Positions 13,543 to 61,720 of a DNA stretch of 64,000 nucleotides are shown here, one piece after another. The stretch lies in assembly GCA_050950145.1 (NCBI GenBank), contig JBMNHB010000001.1, forward strand, positions 684,820-748,819, read 5' to 3'. Source of the stretch: Candidatus Dojkabacteria bacterium (GTDB taxonomy: Bacteria; Patescibacteriota; Dojkabacteria; SC72). Position numbers and translations under genes: made by a program. Numbering within the stretch: position 1 is the first letter of the stretch; each line of letters opens with the position of its first letter. The notes under the pieces were generated by a model, which worked only from the letters and a program-made list of their open reading frames with translations, had not been told where the DNA came from and made no database searches.

Positions 13543-13573
<31 letters not shown>

Positions 13574-13606
13574 ACGAACAGTCCAACCCTTGGGATCTTA
13601 TCCAAT

Positions 13607-13638
<32 letters not shown>

Positions 13639-14523: not shown

Positions 14524-14529
14524 ACCGTT

Positions 14530-16188: not shown

Positions 16189-16219
<31 letters not shown>

Positions 16220-16337
16220 CCCCAATAAACATGGTTAACCTTGCCACACACAACGAACTCACTGGGTCATTCTTCAATAGGCACGCCGCTACCGGATATA
16301 CCGGCTACGACTGTTTGTAAGCATATGGTTTCAGTTG

Positions 16338-16379
<42 letters not shown>

Positions 16380-22542: not shown

Positions 22543-24366
22543 TTAACTACTTCTCATAGAATACATCTTTTCTAATTCACTTACCCTTGTAGCATCATTA
22601 GCACTCTTATCTCTATCCCACTCTATCAACCTAGGAAACCTAAGTGAAAGACCTCCTCCAATATCCTCTTCTCCTAATCTCCTTGTAATCTCATCGGCTT
22701 CAACAGTAAAAACAACCTCTGGATAGACCCAAACATCAGGTTTCAGATTCTCAGGACAGAGAACATCCTGTGGTTGCTCTTCCTCTATCTTAGACTCAAA
22801 CTGTTCTTTAATACTCTTCAATTGCTCATCACTAAAACCTGTCCCCACCTTACAAATTGCCTCATAACCATCTGTCTTCTCGTTATACAATGCTCCTAAA
22901 ACTGCCCCTACTCCAAAATCAGATCTCCTTCCCGAACCAAAATAGTATCCAACACATACAAGATCAACAGTATCCACAAGTGTATTCATCATACTCTTCT
23001 TTAACTTAATCCAATCATAGTTCCTTACACCTGGTAAATATCCTCCTGTACTCATTTTTACAATAACTCCTTCATATCCTTTCTCTACGTTCTCATTAAA
23101 AGTCTTCATTAGAGTATCTAAATCTTCTACTTTTTTAGTCTTACATCTCTCTAAACTACCACTCATTTCAACCTTCTCAAGAATATCTATCCTCTCTTCG
23201 GTATCACTATCTATTAAATCTTTTCCATTTATATACAAAACATCAAAAACCATTGCTCTAACAGGAATATCTTTAGATCTATCACTAACCCCATACTTCC
23301 TTCTTCTCTGCATAGTTTCTTGAAATGGAAGAAATTTTCCATCTTTGAATCCCAATACCTCAGAATCAAGGATAAAGGAGGTATCTGTAATACTTCTTGC
23401 TGATTCAACAACCTCTGGAAACATCTCTGTTACATCTTCTAAATTCCTAGTAAAAAGCTTAATCTCTGTATCACTACTAGCCATATCAAAGAGGTTAACT
23501 TCTTTCTTTGATATATATTTCTTCCAAATATATTCCCTATGCTCAAAATCTTCTACCTTATATTTATGAATCTGACATCTTAGACCATCAAATTTAGGTT
23601 GCACTAATGCAGGAACACCTGTTCTGTCAAATGTTTCTTCAAATGCACCTACCCTTTCTACTAATCTAGGTAATACTGGTATCCCTGGTTGAATATCTAC
23701 TGCTTTAAGACTATCAACAGCACCAAAACTATCTTTTCCTGCAATCTGAGAGTAAATATATCCAATATCTGCAGATACACCGTATGCTCTATCTAACTCA
23801 TCTCTTACACTTTTATCACCAGCAATTATGAAGGAGAAAACATCTAGTAATGTCTTAAAACTAATACCAAACCTTAACTGTCCACATATTATCCTTACAA
23901 AATATTTAGCTTCCAAAGGAGAAAGCTGTTGTAATGTATCTAAAACAATACTGTTTTTCTTATCCATAGCACCACTTCCCTGTATATTAACTATACCCCA
24001 AAGGGTATCATATATTTCTTCAAGTTCTTTACCAAAAGAGTTAAATTTGGCTTTTTCTGAGAACAGTTTAACCGTATCTCCAATATCTCCCAAACTATCC
24101 CTTTCAGCTTTAATATCAACATCTAAACCTTTCATCTTTGAATAGTTCTCAAGTAGAGAGAGTAAGCTTTTTTCAGAATAGTTAAATTCACTATTTAGAA
24201 AGAATGGTGCAACTCTACCAAGAACCATGTATGAAAGAATCTCTCCTTCTTCCTTAGTAAGTTTTTTGTAAAAATCAGCTAGTATTTGTGTAACTTCATT
24301 CCTAGAGCTTCTTTGCTCTATCTGTTCAAATATGTTTGCTACTTCGTGGAACTTCATACTATCCAA
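22543..24366 (-). CDS. ATP-dependent DNA ligase
   Basis: Motif I KFDGLRCQIHK (KxDG adenylation lysine). The length and downstream OB-fold region fit the archaeal/eukaryotic-type ATP ligase architecture. Confidence 0.85.
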   Translation of the reverse strand: MDSMKFHEVANIFEQIEQRSSRNEVTQILADFYKKLTKEEGEILSYMVLGRVAPFFLNSEFNYSEKSLLSLLENYSKMKGLDVDIKAERDSLGDIGDTVKLFSEKAKFNSFGKELEEIYDTLWGIVNIQGSGAMDKKNSIVLDTLQQLSPLEAKYFVRIICGQLRFGISFKTLLDVFSFIIAGDKSVRDELDRAYGVSADIGYIYSQIAGKDSFGAVDSLKAVDIQPGIPVLPRLVERVGAFEETFDRTGVPALVQPKFDGLRCQIHKYKVEDFEHREYIWKKYISKKEVNLFDMASSDTEIKLFTRNLEDVTEMFPEVVESARSITDTSFILDSEVLGFKDGKFLPFQETMQRRRKYGVSDRSKDIPVRAMVFDVLYINGKDLIDSDTEERIDILEKVEMSGSLERCKTKKVEDLDTLMKTFNENVEKGYEGVIVKMSTGGYLPGVRNYDWIKLKKSMMNTLVDTVDLVCVGYYFGSGRRSDFGVGAVLGALYNEKTDGYEAICKVGTGFSDEQLKSIKEQFESKIEEEQPQDVLCPENLKPDVWVYPEVVFTVEADEITRRLGEEDIGGGLSLRFPRLIEWDRDKSANDATRVSELEKMYSMRSS

Positions 24367-34667: not shown

Positions 34668-35588
34668 TCACCTCTCTAAAAACTCTACAACCTTAGGAAA
34701 TATCTCCTTCCTCATTAAAATACCATTATACCTAACCCCTTTATCCATATCAGAAAGATTAAAAATATTAGAAAATAATTCTGTAGAATCAGAATCTATT
34801 GTTAAAAAGTAATTAAAACTATCAATTACATCTACTACAGAGAGAAGAAGATAGTCCAAACTATTCTCATCCTTTATCTCACCCAAAATCCTTCTAATTT
34901 CATTATCCAACTCTTTTACTCTTCTAATAGCATCTGATAACTCAAGCTGAACAACACCTACTCTATCCCCCTTAACCTCATAAAACTTAAACTCCTCTCT
35001 CATTATCTCTTCTAGATTATCCTTACTAATATTTGATTTGTACTCAAACATTCTATCCACATATCCACTCTCAATGCTCCCTATTTCCTTTAACCAATCA
35101 CCCATATCTCTATCCCTCTGAGTAGTCACATTGTTTGTGAAATTAACAGTATTAGAAACAATTGCTGAGTAAAGAAGAACAGCAGTATTTCTAGATGGAA
35201 GAACACCTGCTTCTTGAAACTTCTCAGCTATTAGCGTAGCACAAGACCCTACTAGATCAATATGAAGTTCAGCATTAGGAAAACTTTGGATATATGATAA
35301 CTTTCTATGATCAATCACCTCAATCACTTTATCAATATCTATTAACTCATCTATCCCTTTAGGATCAGAAACATCTACTAAAACAATATCTCCATCACCA
35401 TATCCATCTTGTACTAAATCAATATTCAAACCTCCTAAATATCTCTTAACAAACTCCGTTTCCTCACCGATATCTCCAGCATAAACAGCTCTCGCTTCTT
35501 TACCTTGCATATTAAGTAACTCTGCATATCCAATAGCACATGCTACACAATCAATATCCGGATTTACATACCCTGTTACAGTTATCAT
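34668..35588 (-). CDS. DHH-family phosphoesterase (NrnA-like oligoribonuclease / pAp phosphatase)
   Basis: N-terminal DHH motifs (YVNPDIDCVACAIG and IDHRKL) and a DHHA1-like C-terminal region. The length is about 306 aa. Confidence 0.7.
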   Translation of the reverse strand: MITVTGYVNPDIDCVACAIGYAELLNMQGKEARAVYAGDIGEETEFVKRYLGGLNIDLVQDGYGDGDIVLVDVSDPKGIDELIDIDKVIEVIDHRKLSYIQSFPNAELHIDLVGSCATLIAEKFQEAGVLPSRNTAVLLYSAIVSNTVNFTNNVTTQRDRDMGDWLKEIGSIESGYVDRMFEYKSNISKDNLEEIMREEFKFYEVKGDRVGVVQLELSDAIRRVKELDNEIRRILGEIKDENSLDYLLLSVVDVIDSFNYFLTIDSDSTELFSNIFNLSDMDKGVRYNGILMRKEIFPKVVEFLER

Positions 35589-35595
35589 AAAAACA

Positions 35596-36063
35596 TTACT
35601 TAATTAAACTCTTACTCCAATTCTTAACTCTTTCCAACTCATCATCCTTTATAGGACCTTTCACCCCCATTACAAAGAATGTCTGTACAGAAACAATCTC
35701 CGCTCCTTTTTTCTTCAAAATATCGGCTGTTCTAGGTGCAGAATATCCAAAAAACTTAATAATTCCTTTCATAAAGATATTCTGTTTGTATGTAGTCACA
35801 CTAGTGTCAAAAACTGCAACCTTTGTATTCTTCAATGATTCTTTAGGTAACATATTTAACAATACTTGCACTGCTTTTGATGATCTTCCTCCATGTGTAG
35901 GACAACCAATAATTACAAGATTACTTTTTTGGAAATCTTTCAATTTTGCATCTGTAACTCTCTTCATCACTACCTCATTCTTTTTTCCCAACACCTCCTC
36001 AATCATCTGAGCTATTTTCTCTGTATTACCATAAACCGAATCATAAATTATCAATATTTTCAT
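35596..36063 (-). CDS. Flavodoxin
   Basis: MKILIIYDSVYGNTEKIA matches the FMN-binding loop T/S-x-T-G-x-T. Confidence 0.75.
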   Translation of the reverse strand: MKILIIYDSVYGNTEKIAQMIEEVLGKKNEVVMKRVTDAKLKDFQKSNLVIIGCPTHGGRSSKAVQVLLNMLPKESLKNTKVAVFDTSVTTYKQNIFMKGIIKFFGYSAPRTADILKKKGAEIVSVQTFFVMGVKGPIKDDELERVKNWSKSLIK

Positions 36064-36247
36064 TAAAAATTATGAAAATTAAGTTAACTATGAACCATAT
36101 ATATATGCTAACAGGATGAAAAATTTTTACAACCATTCTAGTAACTAAAGCAAAAACAAGAGTCTAATATTTTTCGACAAAAGATATACAATCCTTTTCC
36201 TTGACATATCTATGTATTTGAGTGATAAATAGGAAGAGATAATTTAA

Positions 36248-37483
36248 TTGAATAGATATATGGAAAACAAACCAATTAAATATTTTTTCCTAGTTCTAGG
36301 TTCATTAGTTCTTCTAGCTATTGGAATATTCTTTGGATCTAGATATATGTGTGAAAATAAAGGTTCTGAAAAAGTCAAACCAAAAGGAATGATGTTGTTA
36401 ATTGAATTTAACAACACAGATGGATTAGCAAATATGGTAAATGATATGAGGGAGAGGGATATTAAAGGATTGTTAATGGTAAATGCTGATTTCATAAAGA
36501 AAAATGCAGAAGAATTGAAAGAAATTCTTAAAACAGGAGTAGTAGAACTCTGTCCTTCATACGACCCAGAACCATTCTGGGGTATGCCTTACGAAAAACA
36601 ATACACTATTATTAAAGAAATGTTAGAGAATTCTAAAGAATACTTAGGTGTTACTCCAAGAGCTATTAGTTCAAGATATATGGCATCTGATGAAACAACA
36701 CTCAAGGTGGCTGATGAGTTAGGCATTGAATATATTACAGCAAGAGGTACTACAGAGTTGGCAACCACTATCTACAAACCAGAAGAGTACAATGTAAAGA
36801 TTATCTCTGTTTCAAATATTGATGTTCCAGAATTTAAATATGGTAGTTTCTGTGATTACAGTTTCTATGAAAGAGCTGGAGAACCAGAGGATATGGAAGA
36901 ACAATTTAAGAGAGCAATTCAGAATGAGAAGATTATGGCAACATCACATACATATATTGGTGGATTTAAGGAGAGATGGAACGATATGTGGCATAGATTG
37001 TGGGATAACTACGGTGTTGAATGGGTAGATTTAGATACTTTAGGAACCGTAGACAAAACAATGCCTACATGGCAGATTCCAGTAAACAAGAATGCTCCAT
37101 ACACTCCAGAGAAAATTAGACCTAAACTTGAATTTCAAGATGAAGCGAATGTAATGAATCCATGCAAGGTAGAAGATTTAAATGAAGATAGTACATATGT
37201 GCCCAAGGAGAAAAGTAACAGAGTTGTAGTATTTCACAACGGAAGTGGAAATATGTGCTTAGACTTACTAGCATTTTTCAAAGAATATGATATTGAATAC
37301 GAAGAGCATAAAACAACAGATACTGATTTCATCTCACAACTCAATTCCTACAAAAAAGGAAAGAGTGAAGGTCTTTCCGACTCATACGGATACTATCCTA
37401 TTATCTTCATTGGAGACAGAGCATTCTCTGGGTTTAACAAAGAGATAGAGGGAGAAATAAAAGAAATACTGGAGATTAAGTAG
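36248..37483 (+). CDS. Hypothetical membrane-anchored protein with a C-terminal glutaredoxin-like (monothiol) domain
   Basis: N-terminal transmembrane segment. The C-terminus VVVFHNGSGNMCLDLLAFFKEYDIEYEEH...YYPIIFIGDRAFSGF resembles a Grx/NrdH fold with a single cysteine. Confidence 0.45.
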   Translation: MNRYMENKPIKYFFLVLGSLVLLAIGIFFGSRYMCENKGSEKVKPKGMMLLIEFNNTDGLANMVNDMRERDIKGLLMVNADFIKKNAEELKEILKTGVVELCPSYDPEPFWGMPYEKQYTIIKEMLENSKEYLGVTPRAISSRYMASDETTLKVADELGIEYITARGTTELATTIYKPEEYNVKIISVSNIDVPEFKYGSFCDYSFYERAGEPEDMEEQFKRAIQNEKIMATSHTYIGGFKERWNDMWHRLWDNYGVEWVDLDTLGTVDKTMPTWQIPVNKNAPYTPEKIRPKLEFQDEANVMNPCKVEDLNEDSTYVPKEKSNRVVVFHNGSGNMCLDLLAFFKEYDIEYEEHKTTDTDFISQLNSYKKGKSEGLSDSYGYYPIIFIGDRAFSGFNKEIEGEIKEILEIK

Positions 37484-37488
37484 AAATA

Positions 37489-37563
37489 TGGTTGCGGGGG
37501 CTGGATTCGAACCAGCGACCTTTAGGTTATGAGCCTAACGAGCTTCCACTGCTCTACCCCGCG
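37489..37563 (-). tRNA. Initiator tRNA-fMet (anticodon CAT) with a C1xA72 mismatch and A73
   Basis: Reverse complement CGCGGGGTAGAGCAGTGGAAGCTCGTTAGGCTCATAACCTAAAGGTCGCTGGTTCGAATCCAGCCCCCGCAACCA. The unpaired 1:72 position is the bacterial initiator hallmark. Confidence 0.8.
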
Positions 37564-37601
37564 TTAGCTATGAAGCATTATATCCCTATTTATCAATATT
37601 T

Positions 37602-38057
37602 TCAAATACCACTCTTTACAAACTCAAACCACTGTATATATGTAGGAGCAGATTCCACCTCTTCTGAACCATAAAGATATGTATCTACCCTTTCTTTTGC
37701 TGATTCTAAGACAGGTTCTGGTATAACAAAAAGAAACTCACTACTACCCGTAAAATTCAACCTATCTCTAGCCTGTATCTCTAAATATTCATCTGTCTGC
37801 ATAGACTCCAATGCCAAAGCAAGTTTAAGATTTTCTAATCTAAGATTATCAACCTCCTCTCTTGCCCTTTTAGATATTTCAATTTTCTGTCCTGTAATTA
37901 CAATAGAATTATACACACTGTAAAGAAGAAAAATTGATATTCCTATCAACCCTACTTTAACAAAAGTATTTCCTAAAAAGGTATTAAGAGTTCCTTGCTT
38001 TGGTTTCTCTCTATCTGAGATAAATTCTTTTTTACTGTTGTATATAACTCTGTCCAT
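37602..38057 (-). CDS. FtsB/DivIC-like septum-formation protein (bitopic, coiled coil)
   Basis: Single transmembrane segment (VKVGLIGISIFLLYSVYNSIVI) followed by a coiled-coil segment (EVDNLRLENLKLALALESMQ). Confidence 0.4.
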   Translation of the reverse strand: MDRVIYNSKKEFISDREKPKQGTLNTFLGNTFVKVGLIGISIFLLYSVYNSIVITGQKIEISKRAREEVDNLRLENLKLALALESMQTDEYLEIQARDRLNFTGSSEFLFVIPEPVLESAKERVDTYLYGSEEVESAPTYIQWFEFVKSGI

Positions 38058-38204
38058 TGTAATAGAATATACAACAAAGAGGAGTAAGAGACCAGTTTCC
38101 TACAAAACACAACCTATATACAATTACTATTGCCCTCTCTTAGTAAGGATGATATAATTACCCTATATCAAACAAATGCCTCTTAAATTGAGTAAATTGT
38201 AGTA

Positions 38205-39092
38205 GTGAGTGGAATAAACAATGTTAATTTTAAAGAAAAAGCAGAGCTATTCACACAAGACCTCACAGCGAAAAACCGTTCTGAGTCTACAGTTATAGCA
38301 TATGCCAAAGATATTGAGCAACTTCTAAATTACTTTTCTAAGATGGGTATCAACTCTTTAGACAAAGTTACAATTGAAGATTTAGAAGGATATAGGCAAA
38401 ACCTACAGGACAACAACTACACTCCAAAAAGTGTCTCTAGAAAAATTAACAGTACAAGAACATTCTTTAGATATCTTTTAGATAATAACTACATTTCAGA
38501 TAATGTTTCTGAGAAATTAGCACATCCTAGATTTGAATTAAAACCTCCTAGAGTACTCTCAGAGATGGAATACAGAGCATTAAGAGATGTTAGTAGAGTT
38601 GATATTCGTCTCTACTCTATCGTTGAACTCCTACTCCAAACAGGTATTAGAATTGGTGAATTAGCAGGACTTTCACTTGAGGATATCAGAAAATCCAAGG
38701 ACGGAAAGATTGATTTTCTTTACATTAAAGCAGCTGGTAGTCATCCATCAAGAAAAGTTCCTTTAAATAAATCAGCGAAGAAGGCTCTTGATGATTATTT
38801 AGCAGTTAGACCAGAAACAGAGGATGATACAGTATTTGTAACAAAGAATGGGAGACCATTACTTGTTAGAAATATTAGAACAGCAATAGATAAATCATTT
38901 GAAAAAGCTGGTATTAAGAATGCAAAAGTAAATGATCTTAGAAATACATTCATTGCACACCACTTAGCAAATGGTGTTGGATTACCTACTGTCTCTAAAC
39001 TTGTTGGACACAAGAGACTATCTACTACAGAGAAGTATTTAAATATACTTAAACCAGTAGGTAAAGAAGAGAGAACCCTAAAAGAGCTTTAA
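38205..39092 (+). CDS. Tyrosine site-specific recombinase (XerC/XerD-like integrase)
   Basis: 295 aa. N-terminal SAM-like core-binding domain. The catalytic region has LLLQTGIRIGELAGLSLEDI, H-x-x-R (HHLANG) and the C-terminus LVGHKRLSTTEKYLN with the nucleophilic Tyr. Confidence 0.8.
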   Translation: MSGINNVNFKEKAELFTQDLTAKNRSESTVIAYAKDIEQLLNYFSKMGINSLDKVTIEDLEGYRQNLQDNNYTPKSVSRKINSTRTFFRYLLDNNYISDNVSEKLAHPRFELKPPRVLSEMEYRALRDVSRVDIRLYSIVELLLQTGIRIGELAGLSLEDIRKSKDGKIDFLYIKAAGSHPSRKVPLNKSAKKALDDYLAVRPETEDDTVFVTKNGRPLLVRNIRTAIDKSFEKAGIKNAKVNDLRNTFIAHHLANGVGLPTVSKLVGHKRLSTTEKYLNILKPVGKEERTLKEL

Positions 39093-39141
39093 TTACTCAC
39101 AAACATTATAGAATTAGTAATATATCAATAATATTTGAGAA

Positions 39142-39218
39142 TGGTGGGAATAGGTGGACTCGAACCACCGACTTCGGCTTTATAAGAACCGTGCTCTGAC
39201 CTCCTGAGCTATATTCCC
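39142..39218 (-). tRNA. tRNA-Ile with anticodon TAT (UAU)
   Basis: Reverse complement GGGAATATAGCTCAGGAGGTCAGAGCACGGTTCTTATAAAGCCGAAGTCGGTGGTTCGAGTCCACCTATTCCCACCA. All four stems are perfect (one G-U pair) and the anticodon loop is CTTATAA. Confidence 0.75.
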
Positions 39219-39262
39219 ATTAATGAAGACATTCTACCAAAACTTAAAGAATTTTAGAAGAC

Positions 39263-41758
39263 CTAAAACATTGGAGGAAAACCTGGCATAGGTTGTTGTG
39301 GAGGTTCCTCTTCCTTTTCCAACTGTGCTCTAGTCCTAATATCATCAGCTACAACATTAACATCTCTACCATATTTCCTTCTAGACATCTCTTTAATAAT
39401 ACCGGAAACTTCCTTGTTAATCGGAATATCAAAACCTGAATCTGGATAATTTGGTCCATATGCACTATCTAATGAGAATGGTGCTGGATACGATCCATTA
39501 TTTAGTAACTTCGTATACCAATGTCCCATTGACTGATTAACAATATCTCCTGCAGAAACATACCCCTCAAAAGGTGTTTCCAAAAACTGAGCATCCTCGG
39601 GACTACATCTTGTGATAAAGAGTGAACCAACATTACCAAATACAGCATTCTTAATATCCTCTGGTAACTGTCCAATATATTGATGTGCAAGAGTTAAGTT
39701 TAATCTGTACTTCCTAGCCTCAGAGAGAATTGAATTAAACTCCTCCGTTGCAAAATTCTGAAACTCATCAGCATAAAAGAAGAAGTCCTTCCTCTGCTCT
39801 TCCGGAATATTTTCCCTACTTAAAGCTGCAGCAAGTAACTTCTGTACTACCAAAAGACCTAAGAAAGACATATTCTCATCCCCTATCAATCCCTTAGAAA
39901 GATTCACAATTAATATTTTCCCTTCATCCATAATCTGTCTAAAATCAAAAGATGATTGAGATTGACCAATAATATTTCTAATTGCTAAGTTTGTTGTAAA
40001 CTTATCAAACTTAGAGATGAAATATGTAAGTGACTCCGCCTTTGTCTTTTTATCTGTCTTAGCAACCTGATCTGTCCAATATCTTAAAACTAATTCATCT
40101 TTAACTAATGGTAACCAGTAGTCCATTACCCACTCCTCATCTTGTAGGATTCTAACAACCTCTATCAATGTAGAATCTGGCTTAGACATAGCTGTTAACA
40201 TAGAGTTTCTTACTGCCTGTTGGAAAGCTGGACCAGCATAACCTTGATTGTTTGGGTCAAACAATCTTATGAGTAGTGCTATAAAGCTATTAACAATTTG
40301 GTGCTTATGCTGTTCATTGTAATATTCCATGATATTTAAACCAAACGGCCTGTCAAAATCACCAGCATTAAAGTAGATAACATCTTCTGCTCTCTCGGGT
40401 GGAATTCTCTCCAAAAGCATCTCTGCAGCAGAACCATGAGGGTCTATAAAGCAACAACCATCACCATTATATATATCCTGAATCATCATCCTTACCATCA
40501 ACCAAGATTTACCAGTACCTGTTTGTCCGAGTATATATGAGTGCCTTCTCCTATCATCCCTCTGAAAACATATCATCTTCCTTTTACCTCTGAAATAGTT
40601 ATTACCCACCCAAATAGTATCTCTAGAGTTAATATCCGAACTAATCTCGTTACCTGCAGGTAATTCCTTAGATAGAAGCCATACAATATTAGGTGTCGTT
40701 ATCTCCTTATTTGGGAAATGATACAACCCTGCTAACTCTTCAATATTTAAAATACTCTTCTCATTCTCTGGAGTTCTTCTATAGATGACATCATAAAGGA
40801 AACTCTTCTGCTCTCTATCCTTCATCTTTTTCTTTTTCAACTTGTTTATTCCAGGATTGTTATACTGATCAAAAGCAGCAAGAATATTTTCTAAATGCAT
40901 CTTCGCTATCTCCTTACTAGGAGCACTAGTAATAATTCTAATCTCAGCCATTAACCCAGGTTTAGAAATCTTTTTGGTTATTGCCTGAAGTTTCTCTTGA
41001 GGTACATTTATCTTTTTCTTTTCTGGATCTGAATTATTCTTTTCAACATTCTGAACAAAACTACTCCCACCCTTCTGCCAGGTATTATCTGTAGGTGCAA
41101 CAGCTAACTGAACAATTGCACCCTCATTCTCAGACATCTTACTCAATGTACTAAGGACATTTGCTAAAGGATCTCCAGTAAAACCTTCTGCTGTCCTGAT
41201 TGGAAGATAGGGATCTTCATCAAGGATAAGTCTTGCATATGCAATCTCTGTATTTGGTGCAAAGATATTGTATTCATCAACAACTGCAACATCTGCATCT
41301 TGGTATGAACCAAGTATTTGTTTTTCTACTAAGTCTGCAAACTTTCTTGGACAGTGTACAAAGAATCTAATCTCACCAGGTAGCCCTACCATTTCAAAAC
41401 TTACACTATTACTAACACTAAACTTCTCCCCTATCCCATCTGCCTTACCACCAATACCGTACAAGTTAGCAAACATCTGTTCTGCTGCCCCTATTTCAAC
41501 TTCATTCTCTCTAGGTACTCTTACCTCCATTAATATTCCATCTCCTGCTTTCTCATTCCTATCTTTCTTTTTAAGCCTCTTCTTTATGTAAAAGAAACCT
41601 AATACAGCAAGAGCTATTATTACAACAAAGAAAGATACCCAACCCCAAGGTACTTTAAAACTATCATACGAATTATCTGGATATCGCACAGTAGATTCCT
41701 TTTTAGGTTGTTCTATTGTTGGACCAAAAACTTGTGCATAAATATCTTTAGAATACAT
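39263..41758 (-). CDS. VirD4/TraG/TraD-family type IV coupling-protein-like ATPase
   Basis: N-terminal transmembrane segment (WVSFFVVIIALAVLGFFYI). Walker A YILGQTGTGKSWLM is followed by CCFIDPHGSAAE (compare DPKGE of the TraG/VirD4 family). Walker B FFFYADEFQNF. The length is 831 aa. Confidence 0.55.
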   Translation of the reverse strand: MYSKDIYAQVFGPTIEQPKKESTVRYPDNSYDSFKVPWGWVSFFVVIIALAVLGFFYIKKRLKKKDRNEKAGDGILMEVRVPRENEVEIGAAEQMFANLYGIGGKADGIGEKFSVSNSVSFEMVGLPGEIRFFVHCPRKFADLVEKQILGSYQDADVAVVDEYNIFAPNTEIAYARLILDEDPYLPIRTAEGFTGDPLANVLSTLSKMSENEGAIVQLAVAPTDNTWQKGGSSFVQNVEKNNSDPEKKKINVPQEKLQAITKKISKPGLMAEIRIITSAPSKEIAKMHLENILAAFDQYNNPGINKLKKKKMKDREQKSFLYDVIYRRTPENEKSILNIEELAGLYHFPNKEITTPNIVWLLSKELPAGNEISSDINSRDTIWVGNNYFRGKRKMICFQRDDRRRHSYILGQTGTGKSWLMVRMMIQDIYNGDGCCFIDPHGSAAEMLLERIPPERAEDVIYFNAGDFDRPFGLNIMEYYNEQHKHQIVNSFIALLIRLFDPNNQGYAGPAFQQAVRNSMLTAMSKPDSTLIEVVRILQDEEWVMDYWLPLVKDELVLRYWTDQVAKTDKKTKAESLTYFISKFDKFTTNLAIRNIIGQSQSSFDFRQIMDEGKILIVNLSKGLIGDENMSFLGLLVVQKLLAAALSRENIPEEQRKDFFFYADEFQNFATEEFNSILSEARKYRLNLTLAHQYIGQLPEDIKNAVFGNVGSLFITRCSPEDAQFLETPFEGYVSAGDIVNQSMGHWYTKLLNNGSYPAPFSLDSAYGPNYPDSGFDIPINKEVSGIIKEMSRRKYGRDVNVVADDIRTRAQLEKEEEPPQQPMPGFPPMF

Positions 41759-41817: not shown

Positions 41818-42153
41818 CTAGTCAACAGTTACACCTACACCATTTCTCTTATCTACAACTATCTTTGAAGCAGTATCACCTGAAGTAGTATCACCTGAAG
41901 TAGTATTACCATCTGTATCTACAGCTTGTGGTTCATATCCATATCCTGTCCACTCTGTTTCATTATCAACAACAGAAGGATTGGGATCTTTAACTGGAGT
42001 TGATACTGGCAAATCAGTATTTTCAGTAACAGGAGCTGATATGGGCTTTTGTACTTCAGGTCTCTCAACACCAAAAGTCTCCTGCTTTGGAGTTTCTGTA
42101 GTTTTTAATGCATCTTCTAATGTCGGTGTTATTAATTTCTCTATTGTACTCAT
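41818..42153 (-). CDS. Small secreted or surface hypothetical protein rich in Thr/Pro/Asp with TSGDT repeats
   Basis: ORF with tandem 15-nt repeats (GTATCACCTGAAGTA twice) encoding TSGDTTSGDT. Confidence 0.4.
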   Translation of the reverse strand: MSTIEKLITPTLEDALKTTETPKQETFGVERPEVQKPISAPVTENTDLPVSTPVKDPNPSVVDNETEWTGYGYEPQAVDTDGNTTSGDTTSGDTASKIVVDKRNGVGVTVD

Positions 42154-42161
42154 AGTATTAA

Positions 42162-42605
42162 TTATATCACATATTTCCTGTTCTCGTAAAGCAACTCCCT
42201 ATCTAGCTCCCTCTCCTTCTCTCTCTGTTTTTTCTCATGTCTCTTCCTACCTCTAGCATATGCCACCTCCACTTTTACTAATTTACCTTTCGTGTATATT
42301 GAAAGAGGTATCAAAACCAGTTTCTTTGCTTTTAACTTACTATCTATCTGTACTAATTCTTTCTTTTTTACTAATAGCTTCCTAGATCTCCTAGCATCAT
42401 AGAACTCATCAGAATTATACTTGTATTGGGGTATCTCTGCATTAACTAAATATAAATCTCCACTTATTATCTTTACAAAAGAATCCGTTAGATTAACCCT
42501 ACCATCTTTAACACTTTTTACTTCTGCACCAGTTAAAACAATACCAGCCTCAAAAGACTCTATAATCTCATAATTAAATGTAGCTTTCTTGTTTGAAATT
42601 TTCAT
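42162..42605 (-). CDS. smpB: SsrA-binding protein
   Basis: NKKATFNYEIIESFEAGIVLTGAEVKS...LVNAEIPQY are conserved SmpB blocks, followed by a basic C-terminal tail. Confidence 0.85.
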   Translation of the reverse strand: MKISNKKATFNYEIIESFEAGIVLTGAEVKSVKDGRVNLTDSFVKIISGDLYLVNAEIPQYKYNSDEFYDARRSRKLLVKKKELVQIDSKLKAKKLVLIPLSIYTKGKLVKVEVAYARGRKRHEKKQREKERELDRELLYENRKYVI

Positions 42606-42616
42606 GCTGTATTATA

Positions 42617-44953
42617 CTACAAAGCAATCTTCCATACCGTATTACCATCAAGTACATACATATTCTCTTCCTTATGATCTACAACAAAATCTTTTACATT
42701 CTTAAATTCATTCTCATCTCCTCCTCTGTATTCATACTGTTTTAATAATAACAATTGATTTGGATGCCTAATATCTGCACCACCCTCTTGTGGTTTTTCA
42801 AATCTGAGAAACCTTTTCCCTTCAGAATCAAACATATACAGACCACTATCCATACTATCAGCATATGTATATCCTTTTGTAATCTTACCAACCCCTCCTG
42901 AGAGACCAATTATTCCAAATTCAGAAAGAACCTGTTTCTGTTCAACTGAGCTCCATATATATCTAAGAATTCCTTCTTCTCCTTTAGTAAATACATACAC
43001 ACTAAAATCTCCATGTATATCCGTAGCATTCTCAAATGCTGGATTTTCAACATATTTATTCAACATGGAATACCTATCACCATACACAGCTGTAGATCTT
43101 AATATAGCTTTTTGGTCAGGAGAAAGAAGATATACATTATCATTCGCTGTTAGGACAATCATATCTACAACATCTATACCTGTAATATCTCTAGCTAAAA
43201 GTCCTGGAAGTGTAATGAAACTTCCTAAAGAATCATCTTCATTCCTCTGTGCTTTTACAACTCCCGTGTCTTTGTCATATACAAAAACTCCTCTTTCTCC
43301 AACAGCAACATACATGGGAGCTTTTAGTATTTTCTGTTCATCTTTAATAACTTCTACCGCAGGTGTTTCAGCTAAAGGTATTCTATAAACAGCTTTTTTA
43401 CCTTTATCTGTAATCAGAAGATACTCTACATTATTCTTATCTATATACTTATCTATATCTACAAGCTCTGCACCCTCTCCAATTGCAGAAAGAGATGGAC
43501 TTAAATAGCTAGAAAGATTTCCTAGTTCAGAAGAAAATCCTACCTTTTTAAAGAGCTGATCTCCAAGTTTGTTATACCTATCTTTCAACTCCTTTGCTTT
43601 AGTTGTATCTTTCTCCTTAAGACCTTCGGGAATCTCCTTTAGTAAATTCCCAACATCAAAATATGCTGTCTCAGCACCACTCTTGTCTCCATCAATATTT
43701 TGTTCTATCTTATCCAATAACTGCTGAATCTGTGTAAATTTCTGATTGACTTCCTTACTAAGTTCATTTGCTTTCTTTGTTTTTATAGAGAAGTTAACAC
43801 CAAGAATTATTAAAACAACTATTGTAACAATCCCCAAAACTATCTTGAATCTCCTTCCCCTTAGATCTCTAACCTTGTAATCATCTACTCTCATACCAAC
43901 CGTTTGTACTGCTTGTCTTGGTTTCCTAAGACTAATTTCTGAATATTTAGACATGATTTTCTTAAACCATCTCTTCCTAGATAGAAGTGAAGAAATCTTG
44001 TTCCATATTGCAACAAACACTGATTTGATATATTCCCATATCTTCTGAAACACACCTTTTATTTTGCTCCATACAATCTTAATTTTCTCTCTTGTTCCCT
44101 CTGATGGTTTTATCTTCTCCAAAAACCCTTCAATTCTACTTTTTGCTCCCTTAAATGTACCTCCAATCTTCTCAGTTGTATCTTTCACATTTATCTTCCC
44201 TATACTAATCTTCTTAAGATCCAACACTAACTTCTTCTTGTCTTCTGGGGGCACAAATGTAGGAGCAATTGTTGGAGTACTTTCAGTTATTTCTTCTGTA
44301 TGTTCTTTTACTAGCGGTTTCTTTGCGTTGATAAAAGACATTACAGCATTATTCCCAGTCATATTCACCCCTATTCTTGTAACTTCTCTTTCTAATTTTT
44401 CCTCCTCAGATGCAACTGTGATATCTGCTAAATTCTCTGAGAAAATTCCCTCTGTTGAGAGAAGTAATGCCTCATTCTTCTCTAATACAACACCTGCCGT
44501 ATTTGCTTCCTTCTTTTTCATGATATCAGCAATGTCTACTACTTTTTCTCCCTTTACAACATATATTTCTCCATTACCTATTGAACCAATATACAAACCT
44601 TCTTTTTTGACCAAACATACCAACATCGTAAGATCTATCTTATTCCCAGCTACATCCTTATCACTCTGAATTAAACTTCTTAACTTGTTAAAGCCATCTG
44701 CTAAGGCAGACTTCATTGAGTCATTTGTCGTTTTCTCATGAGAATACAGATATCCATCGGTAATGCTATCTAAAACAAATTTAGAAAGCCTATTTAATGG
44801 AAGTTCTTTTTCTGAAGACATTTTCAGAATTATATAGATATCTCCTTCTTTACTAGATTTTTGGTCTCTTGTAGAGAAAAGATTTACATGAGAGACTACA
44901 AAAGATTTTGGGTCTTTTTCATTTGATATATATTGTTGGGCAGATATCTCCAT
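42617..44953 (-). CDS. Large hypothetical membrane protein (778 aa). Its N-terminal domain resembles a PP2C/SpoIIE fold.
   Basis: DLTMLVCLVKKEGLYIGSIGNGEIYVVKGEKVVDI resembles the PP2C core strand pattern. A central transmembrane segment (IVLGIVTIVVLIILGVNF) is present and the C-terminal half is large. Confidence 0.45.
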   Translation of the reverse strand: MEISAQQYISNEKDPKSFVVSHVNLFSTRDQKSSKEGDIYIILKMSSEKELPLNRLSKFVLDSITDGYLYSHEKTTNDSMKSALADGFNKLRSLIQSDKDVAGNKIDLTMLVCLVKKEGLYIGSIGNGEIYVVKGEKVVDIADIMKKKEANTAGVVLEKNEALLLSTEGIFSENLADITVASEEEKLEREVTRIGVNMTGNNAVMSFINAKKPLVKEHTEEITESTPTIAPTFVPPEDKKKLVLDLKKISIGKINVKDTTEKIGGTFKGAKSRIEGFLEKIKPSEGTREKIKIVWSKIKGVFQKIWEYIKSVFVAIWNKISSLLSRKRWFKKIMSKYSEISLRKPRQAVQTVGMRVDDYKVRDLRGRRFKIVLGIVTIVVLIILGVNFSIKTKKANELSKEVNQKFTQIQQLLDKIEQNIDGDKSGAETAYFDVGNLLKEIPEGLKEKDTTKAKELKDRYNKLGDQLFKKVGFSSELGNLSSYLSPSLSAIGEGAELVDIDKYIDKNNVEYLLITDKGKKAVYRIPLAETPAVEVIKDEQKILKAPMYVAVGERGVFVYDKDTGVVKAQRNEDDSLGSFITLPGLLARDITGIDVVDMIVLTANDNVYLLSPDQKAILRSTAVYGDRYSMLNKYVENPAFENATDIHGDFSVYVFTKGEEGILRYIWSSVEQKQVLSEFGIIGLSGGVGKITKGYTYADSMDSGLYMFDSEGKRFLRFEKPQEGGADIRHPNQLLLLKQYEYRGGDENEFKNVKDFVVDHKEENMYVLDGNTVWKIAL

Positions 44954-48155: not shown

Positions 48156-48482
48156 TTAAGCAACAGCATCAAGAATAGCTTTTAGTATAAGGCCAACAAG
48201 GATAGTAAAAATCAAACCTATGATAGCCCATGTTAATGTCCCTTGAGCTCTTTTAATCTTATCTGGATCTCCTGCAGATATCATCCACATATATCCACCA
48301 TATACAACAAAAATAAATGCTAGTAAACCAGCAATGGGAAGAAGTTTACTAGTTACTGTATCTACAAGTCTTTGAATCGTCGCCCCATCTAATCTAGGAG
48401 GAGAAGATTGAGCATATATATAGGAACCTGAAAGGAATGAAGCTATGACTAAAGGAATAGATTTGTATAAATCTTTTATCAT
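48156..48482 (-). CDS. VirB2/TrbC-like type IV secretion pilin paralogue 1
   Basis: Signal peptide (...SYIYA|QSS), then two hydrophobic helices flanking the conserved block GGYMWMISAGDPDKIKRAQGTLTWAIIGL. Confidence 0.55.
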   Translation of the reverse strand: MIKDLYKSIPLVIASFLSGSYIYAQSSPPRLDGATIQRLVDTVTSKLLPIAGLLAFIFVVYGGYMWMISAGDPDKIKRAQGTLTWAIIGLIFTILVGLILKAILDAVA

Positions 48483-48489
48483 TAATCGA

Positions 48490-48762
48490 TTAAAGAAACT
48501 TATCTAATACAAATTTTACAATAGTTGGAGATAAAAAGACAATAATTAATCCAATGAACGCAAATATTAAGCCTCTTGTAGCTTCTTTAACCTTTTCATC
48601 ATCTCCTTTTGAAAACATATACTTGAAGCCTGAAATAACAACAGATATCACAACCAGCAGAACAGAAAAAGAGATAGCCAAATCTAACAGATTCCTAACA
48701 AAATCAGTTAAATCAGTATAAGCAGTTAAGTTTAAACTATTTACAAAAGGTTTTTCAAACAT
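48490..48762 (-). CDS. VirB2/TrbC-like pilin paralogue 2
   Basis: Conserved block SGFKYMFSKGDDEKVKEATRGLIFAFIGL between two hydrophobic segments. Confidence 0.5.
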   Translation of the reverse strand: MFEKPFVNSLNLTAYTDLTDFVRNLLDLAISFSVLLVVISVVISGFKYMFSKGDDEKVKEATRGLIFAFIGLIIVFLSPTIVKFVLDKFL

Positions 48763-48792
48763 ACTAAGAATCTTTTACTCCTACTTATCTAG

Positions 48793-49155
48793 TTAGACCT
48801 TAGGAACTACAGTTGTTGGATCAGTTCCTAATATCTTATTCCCTACAAATCTGACAAGTATCACAGCTACAAAACAAACAACAAGACCAATAATCGCCCA
48901 TGTTAAAGATTTAGTTGCTGTTTGAATTTTGTTCTCATCTCCATTAGCTGTCATATATGAATAGCCTGCAAAAATCAAAATACCAACACAAACAATCACA
49001 GCAAACCCAATTGCAAAATTTAACACTGTTTGTACTATACCTGGAATTGTTTTACCCCCAGTTGGATCATCAGGAAGCCAACCTGAAGCTTCTTGTGCAT
49101 AAACAGAGGAAGCTGCTAGATACACAGATATTGGAAACAACTTAGAAATTTTCAT
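48793..49155 (-). CDS. VirB2/TrbC-like pilin paralogue 3
   Basis: Signal peptide (...SVYA|QEA). Conserved block AGYSYMTANGDENKIQTATKSLTWAIIGL. Confidence 0.55.
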   Translation of the reverse strand: MKISKLFPISVYLAASSVYAQEASGWLPDDPTGGKTIPGIVQTVLNFAIGFAVIVCVGILIFAGYSYMTANGDENKIQTATKSLTWAIIGLVVCFVAVILVRFVGNKILGTDPTTVVPKV

Positions 49156-49229
49156 ATATAAATAAATATTTAAATAAAATATATATTAAGTATGTTAATT
49201 ATATATTAACCATATATAAAAAACAATAG

Positions 49230-49556
49230 TTAATCAAGCCCTAAAACCTCCAAAACAAATATTATTAGTATTCTAGCAATAAAAACTATTACCATCCCCA
49301 TAATTGCAGCTACTATACCTTTTTGACCTTTCTGAATTTTATCGGGTTCTCCCACAGAGGTTATCAAAGTATATCCAGAATAAATTATTATAGCCACAGC
49401 CACAACAACAGAAAAGATTACTATTCCATCTAAAATGGGTTTAACTGTCTTCTCCATCACACTATCCATGTTATAGTCACCACCTCCAAGTTTTCCTATC
49501 CCAAATTGAAAATACTTTGACAAGTCCCTGTATCTTTCAGTATCAACTCCTTCCAT
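49230..49556 (-). CDS. VirB2/TrbC-like pilin paralogue 4
   Basis: Conserved block SGYTLITSVGEPDKIQKGQKGIVAAIMGM between two hydrophobic segments. Confidence 0.5.
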   Translation of the reverse strand: MEGVDTERYRDLSKYFQFGIGKLGGGDYNMDSVMEKTVKPILDGIVIFSVVVAVAIIIYSGYTLITSVGEPDKIQKGQKGIVAAIMGMVIVFIARILIIFVLEVLGLD

Positions 49557-49578
49557 ATTTTTATATTATTAAATAATA

Positions 49579-49938
49579 TTACCTTTTAAAAATCTCACCA
49601 TCTCCAACATCACCTATTGTCCCACTTATTATGAGGAGAATAACAATAGACAAAACTACAACTAAAAGGCCAATAATTGCATTTGTAATTAAGGATCTTG
49701 CCTCTTGTAATTTCTCCGGATTTCCTTGACTCGAAATTAGTAAATAACCACCGTAGGACAATAAAATAAATGCCGCTATTACAGCAACTGGTATAGAGAT
49801 TTTTACTATCTTACCAACTAAAACATCAATATCCGTATCAGGCTGAACCTCTAGCTCACTATCTAAGGTGTCACCTAAACTACTAGCATACACTTTTTGC
49901 ACCAAAAAGTTATTTATTCTTAAAAAAATATCCATCAT
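49579..49938 (-). CDS. VirB2/TrbC-like pilin paralogue 5
   Basis: Signal-like N-terminus (...KVYA|SSL). Conserved block GGYLLISSQGNPEKLQEARSLITNAIIGL. Confidence 0.55.
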   Translation of the reverse strand: MMDIFLRINNFLVQKVYASSLGDTLDSELEVQPDTDIDVLVGKIVKISIPVAVIAAFILLSYGGYLLISSQGNPEKLQEARSLITNAIIGLLVVVLSIVILLIISGTIGDVGDGEIFKR

Positions 49939-59794: not shown

Positions 59795-60235
59795 ATGGAG
59801 AAAAAAAGATACGAAGGTTTCTCACTCATTGAGATCCTTGTAGTCGTAGCATTGATCATTATCCTTGCTACAATTACAATTGTTGCTATCAACCCTGGAA
59901 AGAATTTTAGGGATACAAGAAATGCACAGAGGAGCTCAGATGTGAACTCTATCCTTAATGCAGTTACCCAGTACACAACTGATGGTAATACATTAGCCAC
60001 TTTTGGTACCATTTCTGAATGTACAGATGGTGCAACAGCAATTGGTACAGGAGATACTAATGCAGACCTTACACCCTTAACAGAGGGAGATGCAAACTAC
60101 ATTGTATCTATCCCAATGGATCCTAGTGGTGGAACTGCAGAAAATACTGGCTATACAATCTGTACAATTGGAACAAGAGTACAGATTGCTGCACCAAATG
60201 CAGAAGCTGGAAAAGTCATTGAAGTAAAGAGATAG
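59795..60235 (+). CDS. Type IV pilin (prepilin with N-terminal cleavage/methylation motif)
   Basis: RYEG|FSLIEILVVVALIIILATITIVAI is the class III signal peptide. The C-terminal region is globular. Confidence 0.8.
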   Translation: MEKKRYEGFSLIEILVVVALIIILATITIVAINPGKNFRDTRNAQRSSDVNSILNAVTQYTTDGNTLATFGTISECTDGATAIGTGDTNADLTPLTEGDANYIVSIPMDPSGGTAENTGYTICTIGTRVQIAAPNAEAGKVIEVKR

Positions 60236-60298
60236 TTACTTCAATACTGTTTGAATATATAAAGTGAGTATCAGATAGCTCTTAGCTGTCCAAGGGTT

Positions 60299-61720
60299 AT
60301 GATCGAATTACTAGAATTATTAGATGATGTTCTCAAGAAGAAGATCAATATATCTGACTTCCTTGATGCTTTAATTCTAGATGCCCTTAAGAGCAGAGCA
60401 TCTGATATTCACATAGAGTCTAAAGATGACGATATTCTCCTAGTTAGATACAGAGTAGATGGCGTCTTAAGAGATATCATTTCCATTGGTCCAGAACTAA
60501 AAGAAAGTCTTCTCTTTATTGTCAAAGTAAGAGCAAAACTTAGAACTGATGTACACTTAGCTCCTCAAGATGGAAAGATTCTTTTTGTAATTAAAAAATC
60601 TGATATAGAAGGAGAAGAGTCAAAAGAGGAAGAGAAGGAAGGTAAAGAAGAGAACCAACCTGAAGTAGTAGAAGAGAAAGTAGAGAAGGAAGAAGAGAAA
60701 AAAGAAGAAAAGAAGAAAAAGAAAGATGACAAAGAGGAAGAAGAACCTCTAAACAGGTTAGAGGTGTATAAATCTCAAGAAAAAGATACATATAATGTAG
60801 ATGCAAGAGTATCAATATTACCTGTATCCTTTGGTGAAAAAGTTGTAATTAGGTTACTCACTCAAGCAAATAAATCATACTCTATGGCAGACCTAGGATT
60901 TGGAGAACATGATTTAGAAATGCTCGAGAAATCATATAGACAACCATACGGATTAATATTGATTACAGGACCAACAGGTAGTGGTAAAACCACAACACTC
61001 TACTCTATTCTTAAGATTCTAAATACTAGGGAGGTAAACATAACTACAATTGAAGATCCCGTTGAGTACAGTATTGAGGGAGTTAATCACATACAGATCA
61101 ATGTTAAAAGTGATTTAACCTTTGCTACTGGACTTAGATCTATCCTAAGACAAGACCCTAATGTCATCATGGTGGGAGAGATTAGAGATACTGAAACAGC
61201 AAGAATTACTGTTAACTCTGCTCTTACTGGACACCTAGTACTCTCTACTCTACATGCAAATGACTCTGTAAGTGCAATACCAAGACTGGTAGATATGGGT
61301 ATAGAACCCTTCTTAATCGCGTCAACACTTAACATTGTTGTAGCGCAAAGACTCGGTAGAAGACTATGTAAGGAATGTAAGAAAGAATATATATTACAAA
61401 GTGATCAAGAGAACAGTGAATTATTAAAAATGAGGCCTGATTTGCAAAAATTTGTAAAGCCAACACAAAAACTGTACAAAGCTGTAGGTTGTGACCTATG
61501 TAACAACACAGGATACTCAGGAAGAGTTGGAATCTATGAATTACTTTACATAGACAAACCTCTCAGAGACACGATAATAACAAACCCATCTATGGATGCA
61601 ATCCTTGCGGAAGCAAAAAAAGGAGATTTTAAACTTATGGTTGAAGATGCTGTCACTAAACTAACCGACGGAATAATTGATATTAAAGAATTAATTAAAG
61701 TAATTGCGATTAAAGACTAA
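60299..61720 (+). CDS. pilB: Type IV pilus assembly ATPase PilB/GspE family. It has a K/E-rich low-complexity insertion in the N-terminal domain.
   Basis: Walker A GPTGSGKTTTLYSIL. The Asp box, His box and tetracysteine C-K-E-C ... C-D-L-C are present. The insertion is EEKEGKEENQPEVVEEKVEKEEEKKEEKKKKKDDKEEEE. Confidence 0.85.
   Translation: MIELLELLDDVLKKKINISDFLDALILDALKSRASDIHIESKDDDILLVRYRVDGVLRDIISIGPELKESLLFIVKVRAKLRTDVHLAPQDGKILFVIKKSDIEGEESKEEEKEGKEENQPEVVEEKVEKEEEKKEEKKKKKDDKEEEEPLNRLEVYKSQEKDTYNVDARVSILPVSFGEKVVIRLLTQANKSYSMADLGFGEHDLEMLEKSYRQPYGLILITGPTGSGKTTTLYSILKILNTREVNITTIEDPVEYSIEGVNHIQINVKSDLTFATGLRSILRQDPNVIMVGEIRDTETARITVNSALTGHLVLSTLHANDSVSAIPRLVDMGIEPFLIASTLNIVVAQRLGRRLCKECKKEYILQSDQENSELLKMRPDLQKFVKPTQKLYKAVGCDLCNNTGYSGRVGIYELLYIDKPLRDTIITNPSMDAILAEAKKGDFKLMVEDAVTKLTDGIIDIKELIKVIAIKD

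Follow-up and report, generated by a model that had tools for sequence, protein, structure and literature searches.

We analyzed a segment of a 64-kb stretch of a Candidatus Dojkabacteria contig (JBMNHB010000001.1; hereafter the window), in which a Xer-type tyrosine recombinase and a membrane-anchored ATPase adjoin two tRNA genes. With a probability that we put at about 0.85, the segment is vertically inherited core chromosome with two functionally separate parts: a housekeeping Xer recombinase, and a chromosomal relative of the type IV coupling proteins (T4CPs) of type IV secretion systems (T4SSs). A preliminary description of the sequence had instead taken the recombinase, the tRNAs, the ATPase and a downstream pilin array for the remnant or core of an integrative (conjugative) element (ICE), or for a domesticated T4SS. 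The two minus-strand tRNA genes that it placed around a 295-aa recombinase were indeed found by ARAGORN and Rfam. Two genes lie between them, xer on the plus strand and a DivIC/FtsB-like gene on the minus strand, the latter omitted from that description. The features concerned are the following, with the basis of each assignment in brackets.

37489..37563, minus strand: initiator tRNA-fMet, i.e., tRNA-Met(CAT) with a CAU anticodon (ARAGORN and Rfam)
37602..38057, minus strand: DivIC/FtsB-like protein of septum formation, 151 aa (Pfam DivIC, 1.2e-7, passing the gathering cutoff)
38130..38158, plus strand: promoter-like site for xer, TTGCCC-17-TGnTATAAT (consensus scan)
38205..39092, plus strand: Xer-type tyrosine recombinase, 295 aa, GTG start (domain and family matches)
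39142..39218, minus strand: tRNA-Ile(UAU), anticodon TAT (ARAGORN and Rfam)
39263..41758, minus strand: 831-aa membrane-anchored ATPase with a DUF8128 N-domain and a T4CP (VirD4/TraG/TrwB)-like P-loop domain (motifs, profiles, homologs)
41818..42153, minus strand: small acidic low-complexity open reading frame (ORF), 111 aa, directly upstream of the ATPase (no family match)
42162..42605, minus strand: SmpB (trans-translation, housekeeping), inside the supposed island (Pfam SmpB 4e-45)
48156..49938, minus strand: five VirB2-like T4SS_pilin (PF18895) paralogs (family matches)

Conserved gene order around the recombinase and the ATPase

The close-relative contigs, in which the ATPase is 70-81% identical to that of the window, include one of 696 kb (L001) and one of 425 kb. 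In L001, L003, L005 and L006, the gene order was UvrD-pilin array-(DAGK)-SpoIID-like-bPH_2-DUF5657-~770-aa protein-SmpB-small ORF-ATPase, continuing as ATPase-tRNA-Ile(UAU)-Xer (opposite strand)-DivIC-tRNA-fMet-...-EF-P-tRNA-Met-FtsH-PolA-ligase. Gene by gene, this order recurred in all Dojkabacteria relatives that were examined. Species-representative genomes, when scanned, contributed 80 further loci from many Patescibacteria lineages, and retention was counted wherever the downstream flank measured 6 kb or more, accepting a tRNA-Ile(UAU) within 1.5 kb, Xer within 6 kb and a tRNA-Met within 10 kb. All three were present in 4/4 close (Dojkabacteria) loci. Among intermediate loci (Woese-, Levy-, Daviesbacteria and others, with the ATPase ~43-48% identical), tRNA-Ile(UAU) was found in 16/24, Xer in 11/24 and tRNA-Met in 12/24, and among distant classes the counts were 0/25, 2/25 and 0/25, respectively. 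Much of the block survives in Microgenomatia, where the ATPase is ~45% identical. Because the tRNA bracket is retained in both close and intermediate relatives, it is an ancient syntenic block rather than an insertion scar, and the arrangement ATPase-tRNA-Ile(UAU)-Xer-DivIC-tRNA-fMet predates the divergence of Dojkabacteria and Microgenomatia.

Both tRNA genes belong to this conserved arrangement. The tRNA-fMet has a C1xA72 mismatch in its CGCGGGG...CCCCGCAACCA acceptor, and its acceptor and anticodon arm are typical of a bacterial initiator tRNA; it aligns with the orthologs of L001, L003 and L005, and its position is retained in relatives. The tRNA-Ile(UAU) lies directly 3' of the ATPase gene in the window and in the 4 close and 16 intermediate loci counted above.

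The nearest homologs of Xer and the ATPase carry the labels Candidatus Dojkabacteria or candidate division WS6. The window holds a housekeeping set comprising a bacterial rRNA operon, PolA, an ATP-dependent ligase, FtsH, EF-P, SmpB, DAGK and a UvrD/PD-(D/E)XK helicase, as well as type IV pilus genes. Of these, the rRNA operon, PolA, FtsH, EF-P, SmpB, DAGK and the ligase flank and interrupt the focal region. Because of this gene content and the labels of the homologs, the region is assigned to the core chromosome of a bacterium of the Candidate Phyla Radiation (CPR)/Patescibacteria.

Clustering of the six genes on each side of the ATPase in 83 loci gave as recurrent neighbor families Xer (19 loci, always on the opposite strand), DnaX (17), a 213-aa family (16), DivIC (13), ribonucleotide reductase (10), a PduO-type adenosyltransferase (10) and SmpB (8), and small acidic ORFs lay directly upstream in ~29. 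No T4SS component is among these recurrent families, and within the loci pilins were confined to those of the Dojkabacteria type, in accord with the published survey of Patescibacteria genomes described below (PMC12102498).

The Xer recombinase and the coupling-protein-like ATPase

The assignment of the 295-aa protein as a XerC/D-like recombinase was confirmed. It has a SAM-like N-domain (Phage_int_SAM_1, 7.2e-15) and a tyrosine-recombinase catalytic domain (Phage_integrase, 3.4e-27), and matches XerC/XerD/XerA models at about 1e-42 to 1e-46. The nearest solved structures, E. coli XerD (1a0p, 2e-21) and archaeal XerA (5hxy, 1e-19), align end to end. Its top 120 homologs are nearly all exactly 295 aa long and 77-99% identical across the class, which suits a housekeeping gene better than the integrase of an element. 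Its stable chromosomal context and conserved neighbors indicate vertical inheritance, and the DivIC/FtsB-like gene adjoins xer in all close relatives. The chromosomal XerD that the preliminary description had offered as its alternative is thus the better reading as far as a chromosomal Xer is concerned. The coincidental tRNA bracketing that went with it is not, since the bracket has been conserved since before the Dojkabacteria/Microgenomatia split.

The window Xer shares with the XerD/XerC and XerA resolvases the two-domain layout, the size, the housekeeping-like conservation and the residues Arg-I, Arg-II, His-III (GHK) and the nucleophile Tyr, which are invariant in 20/20 Xer orthologs taken from the loci. 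Unlike in XerC, XerD and XerA, the HxxR box reads VNDLR in 20/20 orthologs, so that Asn replaces His-II (VNDLRNTF, aa 241-248, window 38925-38948). Aligned with XerD/XerA, the protein offers no unambiguous position for the catalytic Lys. It is also equidistant from XerC, XerD and XerA and scores 158, 152 and 146 bits against curated NCBIfam equivalog models (XerC, XerD, XerA, XerS or XerH type) whose cutoffs are 335, 330 and 220.

The promoter-like site upstream of xer reached 10/12 in the consensus scan and has a putative extended -10; its TGATATAATT core is conserved in five aligned intergenic regions, suggesting that xer has its own promoter. No E. coli-type dif core with up to 3 mismatches was found in the whole window. 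Inverted repeats around xer and alignments of both xer-flanking spacers revealed no dif-like palindrome, only the promoter-like conserved element. The replication terminus probably lies outside the window. In view of its family, its conservation and its division-gene neighbor, Xer, expressed from its own promoter beside divIC between tRNA-fMet and tRNA-Ile(UAU), would most likely act on a dif-like site in another part of the genome to resolve chromosome dimers.

The ATPase was divided into three parts.

41579..41647, minus strand: single N-terminal transmembrane (TM) helix, about aa 38-60 (sequence; AF2 helix 38-71)
40643..41563, minus strand: DUF8128 domain, aa 66-372 (PF26449, precomputed on homologs)
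39479..40621, minus strand: P-loop ATPase domain, aa 380-760, in which Walker A and DPHG are followed by a predicted helical insertion and Walker B (motifs, profiles)

The preliminary description had reported, beyond the second tRNA, an 831-aa protein with a membrane anchor, Walker A, DPHG(S) and Walker B. All of these are present, and Walker A (GQTGTGKS, 411-418), DPHGS (439-443) and Walker B (...YADEFQ, with D664 and E665) are invariant in the family. The TM helix is followed by the basic stretch KKRLKKKDRNEK, and by the positive-inside rule the bulk of the protein would be cytoplasmic; its C-terminus is a short acidic, proline-rich tail. There are more than 4,000 close homologs with 69-96% identity. 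The family, which is present in many Patescibacteria lineages, numbers 20,075 representative clusters when cut at E<1e-3 and 4,598 when cut at E<1e-30. Many members are 1,400-2,000 aa long, with a long unrelated N-terminal region and the ATPase at the C-terminus, and one carries a fused T4SS_pilin domain.

The PDB and Pfam comparisons were based on 40 diverse family members. Against all PDB sequences, a profile built from them matched TrwB (1.9e-7), DotL (7e-7) and HerA (4.5e-3), with no VirB4 or FtsK chain among the matches. The members matched TrwB_AAD_bind (35/40), TraG-D_C (33/40) and T4SS-DNA_transf (17/40); the window ATPase itself scored 26.1 bits against T4SS-DNA_transf (gathering cutoff 20.1). 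Its best NCBIfam model is the VirD4-like CD1115 family, and its homologs are named at NCBI as T4SS DNA-transfer or DNA-binding proteins. The classification by hidden Markov models (HMMs) that the preliminary description had proposed thus gave T4CP-type signatures, with FtsK_SpoIIIE matching 1/40 members at 7.8e-4 and a generic match to HerA. Together with homologs in the coupling-protein slot of plasmids, these results uphold its VirD4/TraG-like call and support the assignment of the ATPase as a VirD4/TraG-type coupling-protein relative, which is not FtsK and is only generically HerA-like.

T4CPs are part of the FtsK-HerA superfamily, and canonical T4CPs usually have two TM helices. Like TrwB (R388), VirD4 and DotL, the window ATPase is a membrane-anchored P-loop ATPase of this superfamily with a DPxG box after Walker A. 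It differs from them in having one predicted TM helix instead of two and an additional ~300-aa VirB4-N-like domain between anchor and motor. Its identity to them is only about 20-30%, and it scores below the curated family cutoffs.

Further context came from annotated plasmids. Haloterrigena pHTS138 encodes, in this order, a PF18895 pilin, a VirB6-like protein (TrbL_3), a 1,099-aa VirB4 (CD1110 8e-52), a DUF8128 protein and a T4CP-like protein. Its 399-aa protein corresponds to aa 74-371 of the window ATPase (2e-21) and its 1,034-aa VirD4-like ATPase to aa 405-799 (1e-36), whereas BLASTP detected no similarity between the window ATPase and the pHTS138 VirB4. The DUF8128 and motor parts are thus separate genes in haloarchaea but fused in the window. 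The Shouchella clausii plasmid NZ_CP012476 encodes an 883-aa homolog whose alignment covers aa 119-769 (3e-38). This homolog adjoins a replication-relaxation (relaxase-family) gene and lies ahead of a conjugation operon with a TcpF-type VirB4 (813 bits). When the ATPase domain alone was used as the query, the annotations of the plasmid matches were T4SS DNA-binding, TraM-recognition, TraG/TraD or DUF87 protein, and in no case VirB4. This annotated context places the family in the coupling-protein slot, separate from VirB4. The coupling proteins of MPF_FATA-type monoderm and archaeal conjugation systems are homologous to the window ATPase over both of its domains, sit in the T4CP slot and are distinct from the co-resident VirB4; pHTS138 additionally has the PF18895 pilin and the VirB6-like gene. 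The coupling-protein position is held by the plasmid homologs and not by the window gene. The plasmid homologs occur with relaxase-family or full T4SS genes, whereas the window ATPase is chromosomal, among housekeeping genes and without a relaxase in view.

Chromosomal relatives of this kind have been surveyed in Patescibacteria, where 5,713 VirD4-type T4CP homologues were found in 2,918/3,035 genomes, 148 of them near virB4, and where most T4SS clusters lack a relaxase (Quinonero-Coronel et al. 2025, PMC12102498). Like the window ATPase, these homologues are chromosomal, VirD4-like and without a relaxase; they mostly lie at a distance from virB4 and occur in almost every genome, and its family shares their signature of T4SS-DNA_transf, TrwB_AAD_bind and TraG-D_C. 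The membership of its exact family among the hits is not confirmed by accession: none of the six accessions looked for stood in the accessible part of that source. Neither the DUF8128/VirB4-N-like domain nor the linkage to Xer, DivIC and tRNAs is described in the survey. VirB2-like pilin arrays are known in Patescibacteria, and both such arrays and the T4SS are essential in S. epibionticum (review PMC12857230).

These observations are consistent with the following mechanism. The ATPase, transcribed convergently toward xer, would be held in the membrane by its one TM helix, which would anchor a cytoplasmic DUF8128 module and a VirD4/TrwB-like motor. It presumably assembles into a membrane-bound hexamer and, at the expense of ATP, would recruit or translocate a substrate for a relaxase-less Patescibacteria T4SS, whose VirB2-like pilins, encoded 6.4 kb away, may cooperate with it.

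Several points weigh against the assignment of the segment to a housekeeping Xer and a chromosomal coupling-protein relative. Xer lies far under the NCBIfam equivalog cutoffs (158 vs 335 bits), has Asn for His-II in its catalytic box, and has no dif in the window (E. coli-type search) or beside its gene. The ATPase falls far under the curated NCBIfam T4CP cutoffs, and Foldseek places VirB4 and HerA above any T4CP, with an ATPase-domain model of pLDDT 50-70. Scanning of the window ORFs gave no VirB4, VirB6 or relaxase, and housekeeping genes separate the ATPase from the pilins. Finally, the t4cp homologue of S. epibionticum is not essential and may be exapted (PMC12102498).

Alternative readings and the DUF8128 fold

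The ATPase might have been exapted into a functional counterpart of FtsK, a membrane DNA translocase that would act with Xer and DivIC during division instead of serving a secretion system. T4CPs belong, as is well established, to the same superfamily as FtsK. The Xer/DivIC adjacency is conserved in Dojkabacteria and Microgenomatia, and DnaX is a recurrent neighbor in distant classes (17 loci). The exaptation suggested for t4cp (PMC12102498) would also suit such a role. The ATPase and xer are, however, convergent and hence not co-transcribed, and their adjacency forms part of a larger block with SmpB, FtsH and PolA that is lost in distant classes (2/25). Because the two genes are convergent and lie within this larger syntenic block, we do not read their adjacency as functional coupling. 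The sequence also argues against an FtsK-like function: the FtsK_SpoIIIE family matched a single member of 40, and weakly, no FtsK was among the PDB profile matches, and an FtsK-type gamma (KOPS/XerD-interacting) domain was not detected in the ATPase. Moreover, ftsK is annotated in at least one CPR organism, TM7x. We therefore consider an FtsK-like role improbable.

The predicted structure raised a different alternative, namely that the ATPase is a VirB4-type assembly or energizing ATPase of a T4SS, which it resembles in size and two-domain layout. The full-length AF2 model was confident only in the N-domain; the ATPase domain, including an all-helical insertion (aa 482-597) between Walker A and Walker B, had pLDDT 50-70. 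A Foldseek search with this model gave full-length TrwK/VirB4 as the best PDB matches (6e-11) and HerA second, with TM-scores of 0.2, and no T4CP structure was among the top matches. Because the model of the ATPase domain is of low confidence, this ranking is not decisive. The DUF8128 domain was also modeled alone (aa 66-372; AF2 pTM 0.71, pLDDT 67). TrwK/VirB4 structures took the first 14 places among its PDB matches (E from 8.5e-6 to 6.9e-4, with TMq reaching 0.52), ahead of unrelated folds, so that the TrwK/VirB4 N-domain is the only PDB fold matched by this model, at moderate confidence. DUF8128 thus appears to have a VirB4 N-domain-like fold, without detectable sequence similarity to VirB4. 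By its description, TrsD, a VirB4-N homolog, is comparable (PMC12102498); like it, DUF8128 can occur as a standalone gene in T4SS clusters.

Against a VirB4 identity, the ATPase matched none of the VirB4 families (VirB4_CagE, CagE_TrbE_VirB, CD1110, TcpF), on which true VirB4s score strongly, and no VirB4 appeared in the PDB profile search. It has no similarity to the pHTS138 VirB4, and a separate VirB4 coexists with the homolog in both plasmids examined. Within the accessible part of the survey data, both Dojkabacteria genomes of the dataset were VirB4-positive by the VirB4 HMM, and the VirB4 of an example in Table S3, a Paceibacteria genome, is of the PF19044 type, a family found in 1/40 ATPase members (PMC12102498). 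With the low TM-scores of the full-length model added, an identity as VirB4 is quite improbable, and the conflict between sequence and fold is explained by a VirB4-N-like module that would sit on a T4CP-like motor.

We tentatively extend the coupling-protein reading by one further idea, which we regard as doubtful on balance: the DUF8128-T4CP family could be a hybrid of a VirB4-type N-domain and a VirD4-type motor, possibly ancestral to or intermediate between VirB4 and coupling proteins, that was repurposed for a non-conjugative, host-dependent task in Patescibacteria. The family is near-universal and vertically inherited in Patescibacteria and occurs in archaeal and Firmicutes conjugation clusters as well. 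Its task might be the passage of nucleic acid or protein through a pilin-bearing T4SS in episymbiosis, or a chromosome-linked role, as its neighbors Xer, DivIC and DnaX could suggest.

It is very unlikely that the recombinase is the integrase of a tRNA-inserted ICE or ICE remnant, with the ATPase as its coupling protein and the pilins as its mating apparatus. Such an element would account for a tyrosine recombinase that adjoins tRNAs, for the presence, over no more than 12 kb, of a T4CP-like ATPase together with VirB2-like pilins, and for the occurrence of ATPase homologs in conjugation-type plasmid clusters. Nevertheless, the comparison of relatives, proposed earlier as a way to reveal variable presence, showed the order in all close relatives and partly in Microgenomatia, and the recombinase is conserved like a housekeeping gene. 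The 25-nt and 17-nt 3' ends of both tRNAs, with mismatches allowed, have no second copy in the 64 kb, and a direct-repeat scan of the whole window gave no flanking repeats (attL/attR). The GC content is 32-37% across the window outside the rRNA operon and 0.32-0.36 over 33-53 kb, the same as in the remaining window, so that the region shows no compositional shift. SmpB, DAGK and SpoIID lie inside the supposed island, and none of the window ORFs scanned had a family match to a relaxase, VirB4 or VirB6. Conserved synteny without att repeats had been named beforehand as evidence against an integrative element, and on these grounds that part of the preliminary description is refuted. The domesticated T4SS named in the same breath fits the coupling ATPase and the pilin array.

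A HerA-type or MADS-type anti-phage defense ATPase can be dismissed almost entirely: the matches that suggest it (the DUF87/HerA central domain in Pfam at 5.7e-7, 30.3 bits vs a cutoff of 23.2; PADLOC mad8 at 6.8e-13 and HerA at 4.6e-11; HerA second in Foldseek) are generic, superfamily-level and much weaker than those to T4CP-slot proteins (1e-36, 3e-38), no Sir2, DUF4297, NurA or other defense partner is adjacent, and a nearly universal, vertically inherited, highly conserved gene contrasts with the patchy distribution of defense systems.

Implications and neighboring features

The analysis is of value mainly because it corrects an annotation. Taken together, the recombinase, the tRNAs, the coupling ATPase and the pilins mimic a textbook ICE here, yet the segment is ancient core chromosome, and automated mobile-element callers could err likewise in Patescibacteria. 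Chromosomal VirD4-like genes and VirB2-like pilin arrays in Patescibacteria have already been published; what is modestly new is the predicted fold of DUF8128, the Asn that this Xer carries in its catalytic box and the depth of the tRNA-Xer-ATPase synteny. The fold bears on the evolution of T4SS ATPases and on the roles of the roughly two T4CP-like genes per Patescibacteria genome, and the ATPase-tRNA-Ile(UAU)-Xer-DivIC-tRNA-fMet block provides a deep synteny marker that joins Dojkabacteria and Microgenomatia.

Upstream of the ATPase, the 111-aa ORF contains TSGDT repeats. A small acidic ORF occupies the -1 position in about 29 loci of other classes as well (e.g., L061:782-1285, L080:9408-9815 and L027:9365-9922), with the position kept and the sequence not, and it may be a partner or substrate of the ATPase. 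The SmpB gene has the same position in relatives, and the pilin arrays, of 5-7 genes, are kept there. In the interval between the ATPase and the pilins, the 778-aa protein, DUF5657, bPH_2 and the SpoIID-like protein showed no T4SS signature. The conserved ~770-aa membrane protein between SmpB and DUF5657 (42617-44953), present in all Dojkabacteria relatives, had no family assignment, only a sub-threshold PP2C-like N-terminal match. In distant classes, the ~213-aa family without a Pfam match (L082:13305-13937 and 15 further loci) lies at +1 to +5 of the ATPase, mostly +1 to +3, often with DnaX.

The tRNA-Ile(UAU) downstream of the ATPase is kept across Dojkabacteria and Microgenomatia, in L001, L003, L005 and L006 and in the 16/24 intermediate loci. 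Its conservation suggests that these lineages may read AUA without lysidine/TilS; a literature search on tRNA-Ile(UAU)/TilS in CPR returned nothing relevant. At the other end of the block, DHH/DHHA2 phosphoesterase-like, flavodoxin-like and polysaccharide-deacetylase-like genes (34668-37483) adjoin the 3' end of tRNA-fMet. These three genes are not at that spot in L001, L002 or L005, and L003 has a phosphoribosyltransferase gene instead, which makes it a small variable spot, without an integrase and without a tRNA-end repeat. The 15-nt sequence TTATCAATATTTTCA is repeated exactly at 36048 and 37590. A search for repeats flanking the spot and for identical copies elsewhere gave nothing conclusive.

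Farther away, the 23S rRNA gene (13228-16980) contains two mutually related group I introns, spanning 14282-14510 and 14588-14833; their Rfam scores are 78.8 and 72.2 bits, with D8 and D13 as the repeat families concerned. An ATP-dependent DNA ligase of the archaeal/eukaryotic type (22543-24366) lies beside PolA in the conserved block. A type IV pilus cluster (59795-63451) encodes prepilin-like proteins with an N-methylation motif, a PilB/T2SSE ATPase (60299-61720) and PilC/T2SSF (61720-62991). Finally, the region 4246-9396 encodes a surface protein of 1,716 aa in which five DUF285 repeats occur together with Ig-like and cadherin-like domains; its gene has internal DNA repeats of 75-321 bp, and the protein is a candidate adhesin.

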